A stretch of DNA of 64,000 bases from a virus (Duplodnaviria; Caudoviricetes): positions 16,595-80,594 of IMG/VR virus record IMGVR_UViG_3300028887_000102. One strand, written 5' to 3'. A program made the translations under genes and the position numbers. Shown here piece by piece: positions 15,905 to 62,005 of this stretch. The stretch's first letter is position 1, and every line of letters begins with the position of its first letter. Below the pieces are notes generated by a model. The model was not told the DNA's origin. It did no database searches and was given only the letters and a program-made list of their open reading frames with translations.

Positions 15905-17476
15905 ATGATTATGATTGATGAAAAATTTAAAGATATTACGGAATCGTTCGACACGGAACTCTCCGAAATCATAAATAAGAAGAACACCCTCATTGAAGAT
16001 GCAAAGCAACTGCAAACAAAGATGCAGGGTGTTCAATCTGCGGAAAACGAATGCCGCAACCGCATATACAACAAGAAACTTGAGTTCGCCAAGGATTACA
16101 TTACCAACAATATCCTTACGATGCCCACACCAAAAAAGTGGGATTTTCATAGAGTTATGGAACTCCGTAAAGCTCTAGCGAATAGCAAGTGTACAACGGC
16201 AGACGAAAGGGCTGAATCATTGAAAGTCCTTCAAGAATTGAAATTGTATGTGACTACATTTCCGATTGTTGAACGAATCGCAGGGTTGCTCAAGACATGG
16301 ACTGCAAGTGCCATCGACATATCGGGCGAAAAACCTAAAGATGGAAGATACCCTTACGAATTGCAACTTACGGTCAATGGTAGCGACCCTATTCTTTTCG
16401 TGAGCAATAGGATTTGGTTTTACCGCGACTGGGAAGACCACGGCTATGAACGCCAATCCATAGCCAATTTTATGTACCGCGATTCCGATGGGTACGCCCG
16501 TTGCGGATATGTTGATTATTGGGAAATCCTATGTGCCGAAACGGTCTTGTCCGCAGAGTACATCGCCGGAGCCATAAACAAGGATAACGATAATAGTTTC
16601 CAATACCATTCGATATTGCACAAGATTGGTAGTAGAAACGGATATTGCCCGATGTCCAATGAAAGATTTTCATACGCTACGGACTACGAACTTGCCGCCA
16701 AACTCATCGCATATAATTACAAGTGGTTCAAGGTTGATGATATTCTCAAGGCACATCCGCAGATTAAAGAAACAATTATTGCGGATAATAGTGGCGTGGC
16801 TGAAAATACCCAGGAAAACGAAGTTATACTTAAACCGTGGATTGATTTGGTCTATCAAATTATAATAAGCCCCAAAGCCAAAGTAAGTGATATTATCCAC
16901 AAGACGATTGATACCAATATGCTTGCACAAGTGGATAAGATTGATTTTGACTACAAGAGCCGTTCCGTAGTATGGACGGAATATTCCGATGGCGAAATGG
17001 TCTTCGACCCGGACACTTGCGAAATGATTCACAAGCACGGAACACCCCATACCGTGAGCCTTGATGGTGTCATCGTTAAAGACATTCCAGAATACTTGAT
17101 TGAAAACATCATAGAACTTTCAAAGTATGGTGTTGCCTATGGTATGCTATATGTGTCCAAGCATACGGGTATTGGGGAATCCAGCGATGAAACCTACAAC
17201 ACGGATTATATGACCCCCAAGAACCGCAGAGTTCTTCTTGACAAGGAACTTTCGGAATATGGTGTCATTTCCCAAGTTAAGCGTGAACGAGATTACTGGG
17301 TGGTTCTCAACTTTACAATAGCCCTCAAAGTTCCCAAAACACAATTTGAAGAAAAATATAAGGACTACATTCACGGCTCAACAAACAATAATGAACCAAA
17401 GTACCGGTTTTACCCGGTGTTTGATGATAACAAGAACATCGTTGGGATTACTGCGAAGAAACCGAAGCGAAGATGA
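15905..17476 (+). CDS. Large hypothetical protein
   Basis: 523-aa ORF with an N-terminal coiled coil. Confidence 0.75.
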   Translation: MIMIDEKFKDITESFDTELSEIINKKNTLIEDAKQLQTKMQGVQSAENECRNRIYNKKLEFAKDYITNNILTMPTPKKWDFHRVMELRKALANSKCTTADERAESLKVLQELKLYVTTFPIVERIAGLLKTWTASAIDISGEKPKDGRYPYELQLTVNGSDPILFVSNRIWFYRDWEDHGYERQSIANFMYRDSDGYARCGYVDYWEILCAETVLSAEYIAGAINKDNDNSFQYHSILHKIGSRNGYCPMSNERFSYATDYELAAKLIAYNYKWFKVDDILKAHPQIKETIIADNSGVAENTQENEVILKPWIDLVYQIIISPKAKVSDIIHKTIDTNMLAQVDKIDFDYKSRSVVWTEYSDGEMVFDPDTCEMIHKHGTPHTVSLDGVIVKDIPEYLIENIIELSKYGVAYGMLYVSKHTGIGESSDETYNTDYMTPKNRRVLLDKELSEYGVISQVKRERDYWVVLNFTIALKVPKTQFEEKYKDYIHGSTNNNEPKYRFYPVFDDNKNIVGITAKKPKRR

Positions 17477-17548
17477 TTTCCCTATGCGTTTATGTGCATA
17501 ATGGAATAGAGTTTAAAGACAAATACATTGGACTCCATATAAACCCAC

Positions 17549-17573
17549 AAAAGAGCCTTTCTAGGCTCTTTTT
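17549..17573. terminator. Bidirectional intrinsic terminator
   Basis: AAAAGAGCCT-ttct-AGGCTCTTTT between convergent genes. Confidence 0.85.
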
Positions 17574-17615
17574 CCGTTTAGGGGTATAAAGGTAGCACCC
17601 CACCATACGAAACGG

Positions 17616-18098
17616 CTACGGAGAGTGGTTTTCTTTAACTGGCGTGGTCAATTCGGAACGAAGATACCAATGACCCTTGATACATTTATGGGTCTTGCAA
17701 TATTTTCGCATAGATAGCCTACTTTTCCGATTACATTTAAGTCTATTGGCAGCCCTATATGCTCGCCAATATTCGACACCATCGGAGACATGGCCATACT
17801 TGGGGAACAATACGGATTTAGAATTAGCCGATTGTTCTTTAGGTGTAGCATACCTTAAATTTTCGGGTCGGTTATCCGAACGATTTCTATTGATATGGTC
17901 AATAGAACACCCTATGGGGCATTCTCCAATAAATGTTTCTGCAACTAGACGATGGACACGAATCTTTTTTCCATTATAGCAGATATACCTATAACCCCTT
18001 GAATTTGAGCCAAACGCCCAATTTTTACCATTATTATGGCTAACAGCACCATCGGAGCGAACTAAAATGTTCAAAGATGGATGATTCTTTACAATCAT
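17616..18098 (-). CDS. Free-standing HNH homing endonuclease
   Basis: KIRVHRLVAETFIGECPIGCSIDHINRNRSDNRPENLRYAT (HNH_3-type motif). Confidence 0.9.
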   Translation of the reverse strand: MIVKNHPSLNILVRSDGAVSHNNGKNWAFGSNSRGYRYICYNGKKIRVHRLVAETFIGECPIGCSIDHINRNRSDNRPENLRYATPKEQSANSKSVLFPKYGHVSDGVEYWRAYRAANRLKCNRKSRLSMRKYCKTHKCIKGHWYLRSELTTPVKENHSP

Positions 18099-18653
18099 AC
18101 GAAAAGCCTACAAATAGAATACCCAGCATCCGCATAAAGTGGTAGTTTACGAATACTGGGCATTCCAAAAATGCAGATTCTATGAGATATGCGAACTACC
18201 ACGAACACATATCAATACACCAAAAATATATAAATTTTTCTAGTAAAGGCAACTCAATCTCAACAACCATAAGGGATTCTTTAAAAAAACAATTTAACTA
18301 ATGGGAGCTGTATGGGGAGGTGCTGGGTGTTATTAGAGTAGGTAGAATACTAGGATAGAAATAAGAGAAAGTATAGGGGGTATGTAGGCGAGATGGCGGT
18401 GTAGATTCCTAGATGCTTAAAAAAGTTTACAATCATTCCTAGCCATTTCGGAAATTTTGTGCTATATTTGTATCAACTTTGAATCCGAATCGCTTTGCGC
18501 AATTTGCGATTTGGTTCTCTTCAAAATTCGACGGGGTGGATTCCCCTAAAAAGGAGTCCACCCCAACCCATTGAATTTTGAATGGCATAAAGTTCACTAG
18601 CGGAGTTATGAAGGGCTAGTGCTAATGATGGGTCGAATTTCGTAGAGGATTCA

Positions 18654-20441
18654 ATGGATTCTTGTAGTTTAACTTTTTGCAAAAAAAAGAAAGGGCGTCC
18701 AAAGGGCATCACAACGACACGAAGCGGATGCAAGGACATAACACCTTATAGCGTACCTTTTAAAGATTCCTGCAACATATCGCAATTACCCCTAAAAGGC
18801 AAACAGAATTTGCCTATTCTCAAGAGACGCTTGCAAGGCAAGTTTAAGGGTCAATTCCGTAATATTCTTGGGCAACTTTGTATGGTGGTGGACTATGCCC
18901 GGTCGGTACATACACGTGTATCTTCCGATGGTGTAGCCCATTCTTTTTTTATTTCTTGTACTAACAAGACCTTGGCGGCTTGGTTCGGTATGGAACTGCA
19001 ATCCGTCTGGGCGGCACAACTCATCAATCGCAGATTGTGGGATTTGATGGAATTGGGAGTGCTTATTGCCGCGGATAACGGAGTGTGGCACTCTCCATTT
19101 GAAGACGAACCGAAAGCCCGGAGTTATTTCCTTGATGATGGGTTCGCCAAGAGCTTGATTTCCTTGGCTAAAAAGGAAGGTGTCTTGCCCGAATGCCGAT
19201 GGGTTTTAACACCGGTCACGGAAGAACAAGGGCGAAAAGCCGTTGTGAAAGCCGAGAAGATGGCGAAGAAGTCAAAGACCTTTGCGGAGTTCTTAAACCG
19301 TCTTCGCAAGAATTGTGTGTCCGGCAAGAATGTGATGGTTTATCGCAGAACTTACGGCAGGGGTATGGGATTGAACACCAAGGAATTTTGGCATCTTGTG
19401 AACGGCTTGTACCGCGAAGCATCCCCTTGGTATAATGACCTTGAGAAAGACATCCGTACCCTTAATTCTTATGATGAGAACCAAGGCGAATGGGCTTATA
19501 GCGGAGATATGAATGTCAAGGTCACGAATAGCAATTTCGTGTCCGGGATGTCGTTCCGTGTGAACACAAGGCTTTGTGGGATGAAAGCCCACAATGGTTC
19601 TAGGGGTAAGAAGAAAGGTTCGGATAGGGATAAGGAACTTGTTAAGGATTTGGGCAGGGATTACCTAACTTACGATTTCCATGCAAGTATCTTGAGCCTT
19701 ACAAGAGCCGTGCATCGTGGCATCTGGACAAAGCCCACAACGGACATCTACGATGAATTGTATATGCAGATGAACGGCTGCCGTATTCCTAACGGATATG
19801 CCCGAAAGAAGTTCAAGAAAGAAATTCTTTCATCATATATGCCGTTGTCACTTGACCAAGCCGTGAACTATGCATATCGCAGAGAAGTGGATGCTCTTAC
19901 GGAATCCTTGGCCGGCTGGGTTTACGGAGACAAGTTATTCGCACCCCATAGCATCAAGGGTAAGGGCAAGTTGATTCAAAAGGCTAAAAGCCGTTTTTGC
20001 GAAGATGGCGAAAGACTCATTATGAGTTATTCCATCGCAAAGAACCTTGAGAATCTTATGGGCAAGGGCAAGGCTGATTTTAATGGGTCTTCAAGAGAGC
20101 GTCTTTCGGGAATCCACGATGCTATTGTGGAAACCGTGGGCGCTCCTTTTGGTTCGGTTATATTTGAGTTTGAGTCTTGCTTGGTCACAAGGCTTTGTCT
20201 TGAACTCCGCAAGGTTCTTGGTTGTAAGGTTCGTAATGTCTTTGATGCCGTGTATATCCCGAATACCGATAAGTGTGGAAACGAGATAGACTTGAAGACT
20301 CTTGTTGAAGATACCTTGATGCCGAAGATTTTTGCAGAGTTCCATAAGAAGTGGAAGAATGCAATTCAAAGAAGAATCGACCTAGCCACCGAACGACTTG
20401 AGAAGTGGCCGGTCATCCATAAGTACCGTATGGCGATGTAG
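18654..20441 (+). CDS. Protein with a winged-helix-like N-terminus and a family A polymerase-like palm
   Basis: YLTYDFHASIL (motif A-like), ARKKFKKEIL (motif B-like), FEFES...VRNVFDAVY (motif C-like); N-terminal KKKGRPKG. Confidence 0.5.
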   Translation: MDSCSLTFCKKKKGRPKGITTTRSGCKDITPYSVPFKDSCNISQLPLKGKQNLPILKRRLQGKFKGQFRNILGQLCMVVDYARSVHTRVSSDGVAHSFFISCTNKTLAAWFGMELQSVWAAQLINRRLWDLMELGVLIAADNGVWHSPFEDEPKARSYFLDDGFAKSLISLAKKEGVLPECRWVLTPVTEEQGRKAVVKAEKMAKKSKTFAEFLNRLRKNCVSGKNVMVYRRTYGRGMGLNTKEFWHLVNGLYREASPWYNDLEKDIRTLNSYDENQGEWAYSGDMNVKVTNSNFVSGMSFRVNTRLCGMKAHNGSRGKKKGSDRDKELVKDLGRDYLTYDFHASILSLTRAVHRGIWTKPTTDIYDELYMQMNGCRIPNGYARKKFKKEILSSYMPLSLDQAVNYAYRREVDALTESLAGWVYGDKLFAPHSIKGKGKLIQKAKSRFCEDGERLIMSYSIAKNLENLMGKGKADFNGSSRERLSGIHDAIVETVGAPFGSVIFEFESCLVTRLCLELRKVLGCKVRNVFDAVYIPNTDKCGNEIDLKTLVEDTLMPKIFAEFHKKWKNAIQRRIDLATERLEKWPVIHKYRMAM

Positions 20442-34649: not shown

Positions 34650-35849
34650 ATGATGTTGAAGGCATATAAATATCGGATATACCCGACAAAGACTCAAGAA
34701 GTGCTTTTAGTTAAGCATTTCGGTTGCACCAGATACATCTATAATTATGGTCTTGAACGGAAAATAAAGTCTTACGCAGAAACAAAGAAAAGCCTTTCCA
34801 GATTCACGATTCAATCGGATTTGCCGAAGTTGAAGAAAGCCGAAGAAACAAAGTGGCTTGCAGAAGTAAACTCACTTTCGCTACAAGTGGCGTTGCTTAA
34901 TCTCGATATGGCATTCACTAGGTTCTTCAAGGAAAAGAAAGGCTTCCCCAAGTTCAAATCCAAGCACGACCACAACCAATCATTTCAAGTTCCGCAGAAT
35001 ACAACAGTCGATTACGAATGTAAACGGGTGTATATTCCAAAATTCAAGGAAGGAATCAAGTGTAAGTTTGGCAGACAATTTAGCGGAAAGATTAAGACAA
35101 GTACAGTAAGTAGAACCCCAACAGGAAAGTATTACATATCCATTCTGGTAGAAACCAATGATACCATTCCTAGCAAAGCACCGATAGACGAGAACAAAGC
35201 GGTCGGTGTGGACTTGGGCATCAAGACGTTTGCTACCTTGAGCGATGGTACTGAAATACAGAACCCCAAGAACCTAAAGAAATCCTTGAAACGATTAAAA
35301 CGGTTGCAAAGGTCTATTTCCCGAAAAATCAAAGGTAGCAACTCACGGAAGAACACCGTCAAGTTGCTTGCCCGACAATATGAGAAAGTGACCAATCGCA
35401 GAAAGGATTTCTTGCACAAGACAAGCAAGTGGTTGATTGACCACTACGATACTATTTGCCTTGAAACGCTTTCTGCCAAGAATATGATGCGGAATCATAA
35501 ACTTGCACAAGCACTGTCCGATATAAGCATAGGCACGTTCAATGCCTATATGGACTACAAAGCGGAGTGGTATGGTAAGAACATAATCCGCATAGGTCGG
35601 TTCGAGCCATCTAGCAAGATGTGTTCTTGTGGTCACATATACAAGGAACTGACCCTAAAGGATAGGGTATGGACTTGTCCTTGTTGTGGTGCTATCAACA
35701 AAAGGGATTTGTTGGCCGCTAACAACATAAAGAAGTTTGCATTTAAGCAAAACAATACGGCCCGGACGACCGGAATTTACGCCGTGGAAACAATGAACCC
35801 CACTAGGGGAGCAGCCACGGAAACCCACACATCTTTAGTGCGTGGGTAG
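34650..35849 (+). CDS. tnpB: RNA-guided endonuclease TnpB
   Basis: KAYKYRIYPT HTH; GVDLGIK (RuvC-I), ICLETL (RuvC-II), CSCG...CPCCG zinc finger, RDLLAANNI (RuvC-III). Confidence 0.95.
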   Translation: MMLKAYKYRIYPTKTQEVLLVKHFGCTRYIYNYGLERKIKSYAETKKSLSRFTIQSDLPKLKKAEETKWLAEVNSLSLQVALLNLDMAFTRFFKEKKGFPKFKSKHDHNQSFQVPQNTTVDYECKRVYIPKFKEGIKCKFGRQFSGKIKTSTVSRTPTGKYYISILVETNDTIPSKAPIDENKAVGVDLGIKTFATLSDGTEIQNPKNLKKSLKRLKRLQRSISRKIKGSNSRKNTVKLLARQYEKVTNRRKDFLHKTSKWLIDHYDTICLETLSAKNMMRNHKLAQALSDISIGTFNAYMDYKAEWYGKNIIRIGRFEPSSKMCSCGHIYKELTLKDRVWTCPCCGAINKRDLLAANNIKKFAFKQNNTARTTGIYAVETMNPTRGAATETHTSLVRG

Positions 35850-40296: not shown

Positions 40297-40544
40297 GTTC
40301 TTATGATGACATTTTGCATTGGGTTGTAAACTATTTTGTTGATGAAACTATGACTAGCCCCGAATGTCTAGGCAAGAATACTACCTTATCTGAATTAGGT
40401 CGTGATGCGTTTGTGGATAGGGTATTGCTGGTGGTAGCCATAGAAAGTGAGTACGATGTGATTATTAACGATGACGAACGAGATTCGTGGGAAATATTAG
40501 ACGATGTAGCAAAAACAATTTTCAAAAAGGAACATAAGGTATGA
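40293..40544 (+). CDS. Acyl carrier protein-like protein lacking the phosphopantetheine serine
   Basis: TLSELGRDAFVDRVLLVVAIESEYDVIINDDE aligns with ACP [27 protein letters not shown]. Confidence 0.65.
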   Translation: MSSYDDILHWVVNYFVDETMTSPECLGKNTTLSELGRDAFVDRVLLVVAIESEYDVIINDDERDSWEILDDVAKTIFKKEHKV

Positions 40545-41743
40545 TAGAAATTAAAGGTAAATTCAACGTGGCAAAGGTTTTTACCGATAACCTTGAATCC
40601 GAAGCCTATAAGCAAATCTTGAACTTGATGAACCAAAAATTTGCGGAGGGTTCAAAGTTTGCTATTATGCCCGATGCCCATGCAGGGGTTGGGTGTGTTA
40701 TCGGTTTGACGATGAAACTTGTAGATAAGGTTGTTCCAAACCTTGTAGGCGTGGACATTGGATGCGGTATGTTGGTCTTGAAGATTGACAAGTCGTTTAA
40801 AATGGATTTGCCGAAAATGGATAAGATTTGGCATCAAGAAATTCCATCGGGTATGAACCATCGTACCAAGAAGCATCGTTTCGCAGATACCGTGCCACTC
40901 GAAGATTTGGTCACACCGGTTAATGCCGATAAGCTCCGTTTGTCGGTGGGTTCTCTTGGTAGTGGAAACCATTTCGGAGAAGTGGATGTGGATGACGATG
41001 GCAACTATTACATTGTAATCCATTCGGGGTCCAGACATCTTGGTATTGAAGTTTGCAAGTTCCACCAGAACCGAGCGATTGAATACCATCGGGGCAATCG
41101 TGACATTGAAAAGGACATCATCTTGCGATGCAAAGCCGAGGGCAGGGTCAAGGATATTGAAAAGGAACTCCGTGATTTCCACGAAGCGAAGACCCCGATT
41201 CCTAATGAGTTGGCATACCTTGAGGGTTCGTATATGCAAGATTACTTGGCAGATATGCGAATCGCTCAAGATTTCGCCATCAAGAATCGTGAAGCGATGA
41301 TGCAAGTTGTCATTGATTCTATGGGTATTAAGAACCACCATATCCTTGGTAAATTCTGCACTATCCATAACTACATTGACTTGGATGCTATGGTTCTTCG
41401 CAAGGGTTCTATTTCCCTGCAACAAGACCAAATGGCGATTATCCCGATGAATATGCGCGATGGCTCTTTGATTGTCCGTGGAAAGGGAAACCCCGAATGG
41501 AATTTCTCTGGTCCGCATGGAGCAGGGCGTTTGATGTCTCGTTCAAAGGCAAAGGAAACTTTGACGATGGAAGATTTCAAGTCTTCAATGTCCGGCATCT
41601 ACACGACTTGTGTAAGCACCAAGACTCTTGACGAATCCCCAATGGCTTATAAGCCTATGGATGAAATCGTTGAGAACATCCGGGACTCCGCAGACATTGT
41701 ACGGACTATCAAGCCCATCTATAACTTTAAGGCAGAAGAATAA
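40541..41743 (+). CDS. rtcB: RtcB-family RNA ligase
   Basis: MPDAHAG.GCVIG, GVDIGCGM, GSLGSGNHF.E, HSGSR, HNY, PHGAGR, DESPMAYK. Confidence 0.95.
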   Translation: MIEIKGKFNVAKVFTDNLESEAYKQILNLMNQKFAEGSKFAIMPDAHAGVGCVIGLTMKLVDKVVPNLVGVDIGCGMLVLKIDKSFKMDLPKMDKIWHQEIPSGMNHRTKKHRFADTVPLEDLVTPVNADKLRLSVGSLGSGNHFGEVDVDDDGNYYIVIHSGSRHLGIEVCKFHQNRAIEYHRGNRDIEKDIILRCKAEGRVKDIEKELRDFHEAKTPIPNELAYLEGSYMQDYLADMRIAQDFAIKNREAMMQVVIDSMGIKNHHILGKFCTIHNYIDLDAMVLRKGSISLQQDQMAIIPMNMRDGSLIVRGKGNPEWNFSGPHGAGRLMSRSKAKETLTMEDFKSSMSGIYTTCVSTKTLDESPMAYKPMDEIVENIRDSADIVRTIKPIYNFKAEE

Positions 41744-43956: not shown

Positions 43957-44277
43957 ATGCCCGATGAAAATAGTAAATGGACTTTTGATGCTCTTGCCAA
44001 TAATTATCCTAATCCTAGTTTTTGGGGGCGTCACAAGTGGTACAATGCAGATGATGTTCAATGCTGGATTTTGCATTTGAAAGAAGTCCATGATAAGGAA
44101 ATGAATGAACTCCGTGAACAAATGCAGAATGAATCTAAAAAGATTCAAATGGATGTTTTTACTGCAATCCAGACAATAGAAGACCAAATCTCGTCTGGGA
44201 TTCAACCGGTCATTAGAAATTTAATTAACACATATCTTAACAATATCAAAGAAGGTATTAACAATGCCGACAAATAA
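43957..44277 (+). CDS. Hypothetical protein
   Basis: AAGGAG RBS. Confidence 0.65.
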   Translation: MPDENSKWTFDALANNYPNPSFWGRHKWYNADDVQCWILHLKEVHDKEMNELREQMQNESKKIQMDVFTAIQTIEDQISSGIQPVIRNLINTYLNNIKEGINNADK

Positions 44278-45166
44278 TAAAGTAGTTGTTCAACTTTTCT
44301 CCGGTGTTCACGGCAACGAACATTGTGCCGTACTTTCGAGCATCCGTGCAAAGGAAATCATCAAGGATGACTCTATGGACATTCGCCTTATGGATGGGGT
44401 TAATGTTCCCGGTTTGCGTGACAATGTTCGTGAAGTAGCCGACCACTCCAAGGATGTAATTACAGACCTTAATCGTAAGTTTACGATTTATAAGGAACCG
44501 GATAAGATTGATGTCATCACAAAACATATTGAAGACACCATTGAACTTGCAGACATCGTTATTGATATTCACAATTCCCCCGCTTGTATGAATTGTGTTC
44601 TTATTTCTAACAACGGATATGCCCCTGCATATATCCAGCATTGCATTAGCCATAATCTTTCGTACCTTTTATGGGAATCCGATACGGACACCATCAAGAA
44701 GTATTCTCAAGATATGAACAAGGTGGGCATTACGATTGAGCTTGGTGGTATGGGTGGCTCCGTGCATCAAAAGCATCTTATTACCGAGCAGACTCAATTC
44801 ATCATTGATGTAATTGAATCTTTCCAGGGTATGTCAAAGGATGTTCTCAAGAAAGTCTTTACACCAACAAAGCCGGGTTCGTTTGAACCTAGTTATCGGT
44901 TCTTTGATTCCAGTTTTTTGTGGCAACCGATTTTCGCACATTCCGAAGGTGTCATTGAATACCTTTATGACGTGGGCGAGTCTATTGATAAGGGTGCGGT
45001 TATTTGCCGTATTCATAGCAAGAAAGATGGTCACGCACCTTATACCGAAGTGGTTTCCCCTTGTACCGGTAAACTCGCAGAAATTTCGGATGCCTTGTAT
45101 GTAAGGGCTGCCGATTGCTTCTGCCATATCCAACCGGATATTCGTTGTAAGGATAAAGAATGTTAG
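44264..45166 (+). CDS. M14 peptidase-fold zinc hydrolase (succinylglutamate desuccinylase/aspartoacylase family)
   Basis: SGVHGNE (HxxE), DLNRKF, IDIHNS, ITIELGG; C-terminal SPCTGKL barrel-sandwich. Confidence 0.8.
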   Translation: MPTNNKVVVQLFSGVHGNEHCAVLSSIRAKEIIKDDSMDIRLMDGVNVPGLRDNVREVADHSKDVITDLNRKFTIYKEPDKIDVITKHIEDTIELADIVIDIHNSPACMNCVLISNNGYAPAYIQHCISHNLSYLLWESDTDTIKKYSQDMNKVGITIELGGMGGSVHQKHLITEQTQFIIDVIESFQGMSKDVLKKVFTPTKPGSFEPSYRFFDSSFLWQPIFAHSEGVIEYLYDVGESIDKGAVICRIHSKKDGHAPYTEVVSPCTGKLAEISDALYVRAADCFCHIQPDIRCKDKEC

Positions 45167-61162: not shown

Positions 61163-62005
61163 ATGACAAAGCATCTTTATGTAATTGGACACCCTATTTC
61201 TCATAGTAAGTCCGCTATACTCCATAATGCACTTTTCAAGTATTTGGGCATTGATGCGGATTACACACCCCTTGACACAACTAATCTGCCCGATACCATC
61301 TCTATGCTCAAGGAACAAGGATTCCATGGTGCTAATGTCACGATGCCGTGGAAGAAAACAGTTTCCAAGTGTGTAGATTCTTTATCTCCAATGAGTTTTA
61401 TGTCCGAAAGTGTAAACACTCTTTATTGGGAAGACAATGAACTATGTGGCACTACAACGGATGCCGTTGGTTTTATGCGAGGGCTTGGGCCGTTCTTTAC
61501 GGCTGGCGATAAGAACATTACTATTATCGGTTCTGGTGGTGTGGCTAGGTGCTTGGCATTCGCTATGGCTCAATGCGGAAATGTTTTGATTACTAGCCGA
61601 AATGAATTTTCGTGTATGACCCTTGCGGCAGAAGTAAACGAGGTTTATAAATTCCGTAAGCCTGCAACATACATTGCTCTTGATAAGTTCACTTATGAAG
61701 CATCCGAAAAGCAAGACATCATCATCAATGCTACTCCGTGTGGAATGGAGCTTCCGGGTTATAATTACTTGCCTATTCCCGAAGATGCTATTCATCCGCA
61801 TCAAGTCATTTGCGATTGCGTTTATAATCCGATTGAAACTAAATTGGTGTCCTATGCCAAATCTATTGGTTGCAAAGTCGTGTATGGCTATGAGATGTTT
61901 ATTCATCAAGCCCTAGAAAGTTTGAAGATTTGGTTTCCCGATGTTGTTAAAGATGCAGAGTATGAAAAGCTCTATAAATTATCAAGGTCTATCTTGAATG
62001 TATAA
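61163..62005 (+). CDS. aroE: Shikimate dehydrogenase
   Basis: VIGHPISHSKS, GANVTMPWK, SVNTL, TTDAVGF, IIGSGGVAR, INATPCGM, DCVYNP.ET.L, G.EMFIHQA. Confidence 0.9.
   Translation: MTKHLYVIGHPISHSKSAILHNALFKYLGIDADYTPLDTTNLPDTISMLKEQGFHGANVTMPWKKTVSKCVDSLSPMSFMSESVNTLYWEDNELCGTTTDAVGFMRGLGPFFTAGDKNITIIGSGGVARCLAFAMAQCGNVLITSRNEFSCMTLAAEVNEVYKFRKPATYIALDKFTYEASEKQDIIINATPCGMELPGYNYLPIPEDAIHPHQVICDCVYNPIETKLVSYAKSIGCKVVYGYEMFIHQALESLKIWFPDVVKDAEYEKLYKLSRSILNV

Follow-up and report, generated by a model that had tools for sequence, protein, structure and literature searches.

A probable TV-Pol/divPolA2-type polymerase with a predicted N-terminal winged helix, encoded by an uncultured T4-like phage

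The window analysed here is a 64,000-nucleotide stretch of viral DNA (positions 16,595 to 80,594 of IMG/VR record IMGVR_UViG_3300028887_000102) and is part of an 80.6 kb record with an estimated completeness of ∼37% by CheckV. The window encodes a tail sheath as well as a baseplate hub of the T4 type, and the phage is a T4-like, uncultured virus with a genome of ∼215–220 kb. The gene of interest occupies positions 18654–20441 on the plus strand and encodes a 595-residue protein, which the open reading frame, its homologs and predicted structures identify as a winged helix joined to a minimal family A polymerase of the TV-Pol type. A preliminary description of this gene, made from the sequence alone, presented it as an orphan, stripped-down polymerase with a DNA-binding N-terminus, possibly an origin-specific primase or initiator.

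All features of the protein lie on the plus strand. An AT-hook-like sequence, KKKGRPKG (residues 10–17; 18681–18704), is located in an N-terminal tail that is predicted to be disordered (predicted local distance difference test score, pLDDT, of 25–31), with its GRP core being invariant only among three close orthologs. The models then place a winged-helix DNA-binding domain at residues ∼55–177 (18816–19184), followed by a thumb of paired long helices (residues ∼187–271, 19212–19466; helices 190–206/208–220 and 242–256/259–271) and a β-hairpin (19509–19559; strands 286–290 and 296–301) ending in the invariant Arg302, which is assigned by profile alignment as the equivalent of the TGR motif (Escherichia coli R668). 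Motif A (YLTYD341FHAS345I346LSL; 19662–19700) contains the first putative catalytic aspartate, with strand 338–341 leading into helix 346–355 and with Asp341, Ser345 and Ile346 invariant. The fingers (19743–19841) comprise an invariant D364-x-Y366 element and an O-helix, R384-x-x-x-K388…Y395, in which Lys388 is invariant, Arg384 is nearly so (at least 90%) and all three residues share the modelled helix 381–395. An insertion of ∼55 residues in the fingers (19896–20060), modelled as helices, is present only in P0001–P0003 of the family alignment and is specific to the clade of this phage. The FEFES helix, with invariant Glu507, and the motif C β-hairpin RNVFD531AVY (20163–20255; strands 527–529 and 532–535) complete the module, with the second putative catalytic aspartate, the invariant Asp531, at the turn of the hairpin in the structure model.

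Two structure models and two independent structural aligners agree on a family A fold containing the PolA palm. When aligned structurally, Pol nu, Klenow and apPol match the model from residues 184–190 onwards, so that the thumb helices are included, and the polymerase module of thumb, palm and fingers (∼400 residues) matches the Klenow polymerase domain in size. No exonuclease domain was found in the protein by Pfam or by structural alignment. These results bear out the preliminary description in several respects: its three motifs are all present in the open reading frame in the order given, and the family A fold, both aspartates, the O-helix arginine and lysine, the missing exonuclease and the DNA-binding N-terminus (as a winged-helix fold) are upheld by the models and alignments. 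The term 'stripped-down' applies only to the missing exonuclease, since thumb, palm and fingers are all present.

Searched exhaustively with phmmer, a library of 1.84 billion representative proteins yielded 19 homologs at E ≤ 0.001, of which just three had E < 1e-10. The protein is therefore no orphan, as had been stated, but belongs to a family with at least 19 representative clusters in that library that fits a published polymerase type, TV-Pol/divPolA2 (PMC2579912, PMC11348598). Members are distributed among T4-like phages, small phage contigs and integrase-bearing islands. In a 20-sequence family alignment, in which the sequences are 16–87% identical to the 595-residue protein, the invariant columns are Arg302, Arg325, Asp341, Ser345, Ile346, Asp364, Tyr366, Lys388, Gly496, Glu507 and Asp531; both palm aspartates, Asp341 and Asp531, are thus retained in 20 of 20 sequences, as the assignment of catalytic roles to them would predict. 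Other searches were unproductive. Neither the protein nor its 20-member family matched Pfam, PHROGs, NCBIfam or PADLOC, and the PDB gave no sequence match by phmmer or by profile. Comparison by tblastn gave no match for the protein in 50,697 phage records or for the family members P0008 and P0017 in 72,556 plasmids. A search of viral contigs for related loci found none, a word-indexed profile search added nothing and the ESM Atlas contributed nothing but unnamed clusters.

Comparison with canonical family A DNA polymerases used a reference alignment of 12 PolA sequences (E. coli Klenow, T7 gp5 and ten phage PolAs), which recovers the known residues R668, D705, E710, D732, R754, K758, Y766, N845, Q849, H881 and D882. 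Alignment of the family profile with this reference using hhalign gave a single colinear alignment (E 0.04–0.05) pairing R302 with R668, R325 with R682, D341 with D705, D364 with D732, R384 with R754, K388 with K758 and, with greedy extension, D531 with D882. The score of 21.9 compares with 12.9 ± 2.2 (maximum 19.7) in 70 column-shuffled controls, and five identical pairs of invariant residues were found, against at most three in any of the 70 shuffles. Alignment of the family profile with the single sequences of Klenow, T7 DNA polymerase and T7 RNA polymerase produced only spurious short matches, and Pfam PF00476 matched neither the 595-residue protein at E ≤ 1 nor any of the 20 family members at E ≤ 0.1.

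The same alignment shows where the family departs from PolA. The steric-gate glutamate (E710), which all 19 PolA clusters retain without exception (Czernecki et al., 2023, PMC10201439), aligns to the invariant Ser345, which is followed by Ile346. In motif B, Arg384 and Lys388 are present, but position K+4 is Leu or Met rather than the F/Y of B3 in PolA, position K+8 (the Y766 or B4 tyrosine position) is Met or Phe and a conserved tyrosine occurs instead at K+7. Motif C reads F530-D531-A532 in the 595-residue protein and Y-D-G in the family consensus rather than the H-D-E of PolA, so that H881 is replaced by Phe or Tyr and E883 by Ala or Gly and only the aspartate is retained; N845 and Q849 have no recognizable counterparts. 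Three residues that are strictly conserved across the 19 PolA clusters (PMC10201439) are thus replaced, and the winged helix occupies the place of the exonuclease domain, with neither a 3′–5′ nor a 5′–3′ exonuclease present. Canonical PolA identity was rejected given the undetected PF00476 and the replacement of the steric-gate glutamate, the motif B tyrosine and the motif C histidine and glutamate. These replacements also bear on the suggestion that the protein is a primer-dependent DNA polymerase lacking proofreading, similar to Pol nu or Pol theta, whose tasks would be repair, gap filling, lesion bypass or recombination-dependent synthesis and whose winged helix would act only as a DNA clamp or recruitment module. 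An invariant Ser-Ile at the steric gate and Met or Phe at the B4 tyrosine position are unexpected in such an enzyme, and a winged helix of the sequence-specific type would be unusual for a repair polymerase. Together with the genomic context described below, these features make a repair function unlikely.

The features of the protein correspond more closely to two types of divergent polymerase that were previously known from computational work. TV-Pol was defined by a coiled-coil thumb, a β-hairpin with an absolutely conserved arginine, two palm aspartates and a fingers aspartate with RxxxK; it has an RRM-like palm whose first strand is followed by the inserted fingers, shows no fusion or linkage to nucleases and is found as a free-standing protein, with a C-terminal D5 helicase or, in a subset, with an N-terminal globular all-helical domain (Iyer, Abhiman & Aravind, 2008, PMC2579912). 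Its founding members include Sputnik V13 and sequences from Ma-LMM01, SCCmec, Brucella and Loktanella. Its reported contexts are lambda-type integrases, resolvases, transposases, restriction–modification hot spots and viruses, and primase-polymerase activity was predicted for it (PMC2579912). When compared with this published description, the 595-residue protein shows all four defining features. It also shares with TV-Pol a minimal core of this kind without a nuclease domain, a length within 400–600 residues, an extra N-terminal domain and occurrence both in phages and in integrase, transposase or restriction–modification islands, including those of Bacteroidetes and Verrucomicrobia. The two differ in that the N-terminal domain was described as 'uncharacterized all-helical' in 2008 but is recognized as a winged helix in this protein, in that no D5-like helicase is fused to the gene or neighbours it and in that the carrier is a T4-like phage of ∼215–220 kb.

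The second type, divPolA2, is a divergent PolA lacking an exonuclease and carrying an N-terminal globular domain, which was described from barbaviruses and other myophages, including ICP1 and Aeromonas phages, with AUR84708 of Vibrio phage 1.063.O as the reference and with PSI-BLAST used to assemble the family; it was said to accompany a regular replicative DNA polymerase in the same phage and to lack a thumb homologous to those of other DNA polymerases and was proposed to be a repair DNA polymerase or an RNA polymerase (Yutin et al., 2024, PMC11348598). A Foldseek search of BFVD with the predicted structure gave a 435-residue protein of Rheinheimera phage Barba31A as the best match (E 5.4e-4, probability 0.99), followed by Aeromonas phage proteins of ∼430 residues. 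At the sequence level the relationship is remote. A family hidden Markov model produced no match at E ≤ 1 in the divPolA2 reference genome MG592441, and with the --max setting AUR84708 was the best of 45 open reading frames at E 0.09. Using hhalign against five divPolA2 proteins, a 159-column block that starts ahead of motif A and runs on to include motif C was aligned (score 28.8, E 0.004), with six pairs of identical invariant residues (R325/R242, D341/D256, D364/D276, Y366/Y278, K388/K295 and D531/D394) and with R384 aligned to R291; 100 shuffles gave scores of 13.8 ± 2.4 (maximum 21.7) and at most one identical invariant pair. Shared signatures include two derived ones, the fingers D-x-Y (D-I-H in PolA) and YD[FV]KA in motif A, as well as RxxxK and a serine in the helix preceding motif C, in addition to the N-terminal globular domain, the missing exonuclease and a palm that is predicted to be active. 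The 595-residue protein is ∼165 residues longer than the ∼430-residue divPolA2 proteins, and its paired helices align with the thumb region of PolA. Based on the TV-Pol features, the type of genomic context, the remote link to divPolA2 and the shared signatures, it is probably a member of the TV-Pol/divPolA2 type that forms a distinct subfamily.

Since the two-metal aspartates, the hairpin arginine, R384/K388 and D-x-Y are all retained, the protein is probably catalytically intact. Two observations could suggest instead a catalytically dead protein or a DNA-binding regulator that keeps a polymerase-like fold, or even a coincidental resemblance of motifs: no sequence match was found in Pfam, PHROGs, NCBIfam, PADLOC or the PDB, and the statistics of any single tool are weak. 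However, the residues that are invariant over 16–87% identity are exactly those for two-metal catalysis and triphosphate binding, the colinear placement of the motifs outscores every shuffle in the comparisons with PolA and with divPolA2, and the fold is agreed upon by two aligners and two models, which makes this explanation highly improbable.

Upstream of the gene is a 555-nucleotide gap (18099–18653) that is unevenly conserved. The last ∼230 nucleotides before the ATG are nearly identical to those of L020, the locus of an ortholog with 87% protein identity, whereas similarity drops to only ∼60% in the distal part. A candidate σ70-like promoter, TAGCCA-17-(TGc)TATATT, can be read on the plus strand at 18440–18468; it is conserved in L020 and its −10 box is also present in L022, the locus of a 54% identical ortholog. 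Downstream of it, positions 18472–18653 of the same strand are predicted to fold into three hairpins (minimum free energy −70.9 kcal/mol, z −5.0, 0 of 200 shuffles), with the outer helices pairing with the region of the ribosome-binding site and AUG. This segment is ∼97% identical in L020, and its main GC hairpin is retained in L022 by compensatory changes. Promoter candidate and leader together (18440–18653) correspond to L020:805–1038 and L022:1–186. No Rfam family was found in the window. An adjacent structured noncoding locus had been noted in the preliminary description, and it is indeed structured and conserved in L020 and L022, but origin features were not found: there is no switch in GC skew at the locus and, beyond short chance pairs, no iteron-like repeats in 17400–18800. 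The conserved stretch is best read as a regulatory, transcribed 5′ leader, which may act as a translational operator or attenuator, suggesting that translation of the polymerase is regulated. One of seven plus-strand copies of the 11-mer TTGAATCCGAA is located in the leader; it was rejected as a motif because the flanks of the copies are unrelated and the 11-mer encodes L-E-S-E.

The promoter candidate of the polymerase gene differs from the consensus early promoters of the window, the motif of which is absent there. A motif scan located ten near-identical copies of TTGACA-N6-TGATATTTAGT-TATATT (0 expected by chance) at 2924, 14692, 20886, 31220 (minus strand), 31317, 41770, 47485, 51280, 54932 and 57992. 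Their conserved 11-nucleotide spacer exceeds the needs of σ70, and a phage factor may read it. The promoter inventory is relevant to the proposal of a miniature single-subunit RNA polymerase for the transcription of a set of phage or element genes, in which the winged helix would recognize promoters as the N-terminal domain and specificity loop of T7 RNA polymerase do. T7-like RNA polymerases and POLRMT belong to the same superfamily, likewise place a DNA-recognition module N-terminal to the polymerase domain, likewise lack a steric-gate glutamate and follow the motif C aspartate with a small residue. T7 RNA polymerase and POLRMT also prime DNA replication. However, the only strongly repeated promoter motif is of the σ70 type (TTGACA-17-TATATT, the ten copies above), with no second promoter-like motif repeated in the 80.6 kb record, and neither T4-like phages nor small integrase islands have an obvious need for an RNA polymerase of their own. 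In addition, RNA polymerase structures rank far below DNA polymerases in the structural comparison, and the motif B tyrosine (Y639) with which T7 RNA polymerase reads the 2′-OH has no clear equivalent, the residue eight positions after Lys388 being Met or Phe. A dedicated transcriptase is accordingly considered unlikely.

A free-standing HNH_3 homing endonuclease gene (17616–18098, minus strand; PF13392, E 5e-17) neighbours the polymerase gene; it is missing from the corresponding place in L020, while in L022 an HNH gene lies downstream (1950–2468), and the upstream HNH gene is a mobile insertion. An IS1595-type DDE gene is found downstream in L020 (2871–3392) and a TnsA-like gene in L007 (4943–5476). 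Because these genes sit at differing places in relatives, the polymerase locus is an insertion hot spot. Several homologs have neighbours of ∼154 residues, which show no relation to one another. The window itself further encodes, on the plus strand, a TnpB/OrfB_IS605 protein with helix-turn-helix (HTH) and Cas12f-like TNB domains (34650–35849; PF01385, E 4e-30), an RtcB RNA ligase (40541–41743; E 4e-61), an AstE/AspA-type deacylase domain (44264–45166; E 3e-11) and a shikimate dehydrogenase-like protein (61163–62005; E 1e-22). No other replication gene was found among the window proteins, and the 80.6 kb record, which is ∼37% complete, contains no match to PF00476 or PF00136.

Outside large phages, one setting is a small integrated element (L030, G148:C10; 6057–11551) in the genome of a bacterium that shares its phylum with a Verrucomicrobia metagenome-assembled genome. 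A tyrosine integrase, which lies 2.5 kb upstream of the homolog, is followed by two open reading frames of 244 and 285 residues without assigned function, by the intact 599-residue homolog and then by host surface-protein genes. The 301 genomes of this phylum contain one intact copy of the homolog and one remnant; the copy in the Verrucomicrobia genome (L027/L028) is a fragmented remnant and is uninformative. Within such small integrase islands no other polymerase-like gene accompanies the homolog. What a repair polymerase would do there is not obvious, and replication of the element fits better. Elsewhere, an rve integrase lies near the homolog (L023), and in L024, which also carries HsdR and DDE_Tnp_1 genes, the homolog lies directly behind a translationally coupled AlpA-type HTH gene (HTH_17). 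A recurrent placement is as the first gene after a divergent intergenic gap of ∼420–435 nucleotides, near gp46/47-like, UvsW or PIF1 genes. A 116 kb T4-like contig provides an example, with a 769-residue homolog (P0012) first after a 420-nucleotide divergent gap bordered by gp47/gp46-like genes (Metallophos, SMC_N) on one side and by UvsW, gp2, portal, protease and gp23 genes on the other; an RtcB gene is also located near this homolog.

A site-specific primase-polymerase or initiator role may be inferred for the family from the winged helix, which is of the initiator or repressor kind, from the presence of the gene as the only polymerase-like gene in small integrase islands, from its position directly behind an AlpA-type HTH gene, from its recurrent first place after a divergent gap beside gp46/47-like, UvsW and PIF1 genes, and from the displacement argument made in 2008 (PMC2579912). 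According to this proposal, which is given about even credence, the protein is a catalytically competent TV-Pol/divPolA2-type enzyme in which the winged helix, following the AT-hook-like tail and standing in place of the exonuclease domain before thumb, palm and fingers, would bring the polymerase to a specific DNA site. The polymerase would start a nucleic acid chain de novo at that site and then extend it, acting either as an initiator of replication or as an auxiliary enzyme of the origin, with the main replicase encoded elsewhere. With both the steric-gate and the motif C glutamates missing, RNA or a mixed chain may be made first. The preliminary suggestion of a primase or initiator rather than the main replicase thus agrees with the role proposed in published computational work, and the function itself is put forward here at the level of a conjecture.

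An unannotated divPolA2 homolog in ICP1 (L041, MW794162.1; 57709–58998), 42% identical to AUR84708, is of interest in this respect. The early theta-replication peak of ICP1 was reported 'near the 60 kb position' (Barth et al., PMC7145576), and the gene lies within ∼1–2 kb of this peak, although different isolates are compared and the peak position is only roughly defined. A rather doubtful reading is that the enzyme is a sequence-targeted, primer-independent polymerase of the PolA fold that would begin with ribonucleotides, a start suggested by the missing steric-gate glutamate, at a site recognized by the winged helix. It would act as a dedicated origin primer synthase in T4-like phages and small integrative elements and would stand between DNA polymerase I and the T7-type RNA polymerases as a living intermediate, with translation controlled by the leader.

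The 595-residue protein is one further instance of a computationally described type. Enzymes of the TV-Pol/divPolA2 type occur widely among phages and mobile elements, and it has been suggested that they are similar to the ancestor from which both DNA polymerase I and the T7-type RNA polymerases descend. The family described here offers several handles on this type: the N-terminal domain is a winged helix, and therefore its DNA target can be sought; every member has other residues in place of the steric-gate and motif C glutamates, so that whether the product is DNA or RNA becomes a sharp question; and the conserved structured leader provides a third handle. The ICP1 divPolA2 homolog is a genetically tractable test case. 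A functional analogy can be drawn with piPolB of pipolins, the activity of which has been demonstrated (Redrejo-Rodriguez et al., 2017, PMC5695915), and with AEP prim-pols, which are likewise polymerases on integrase-bearing elements or phages and are thought to start and extend DNA, but which have unrelated folds (family B and AEP, respectively). If de novo, site-specific synthesis by the present family is true, it would be a primase-polymerase of the PolA fold comparable to piPolB and the AEP prim-pols.
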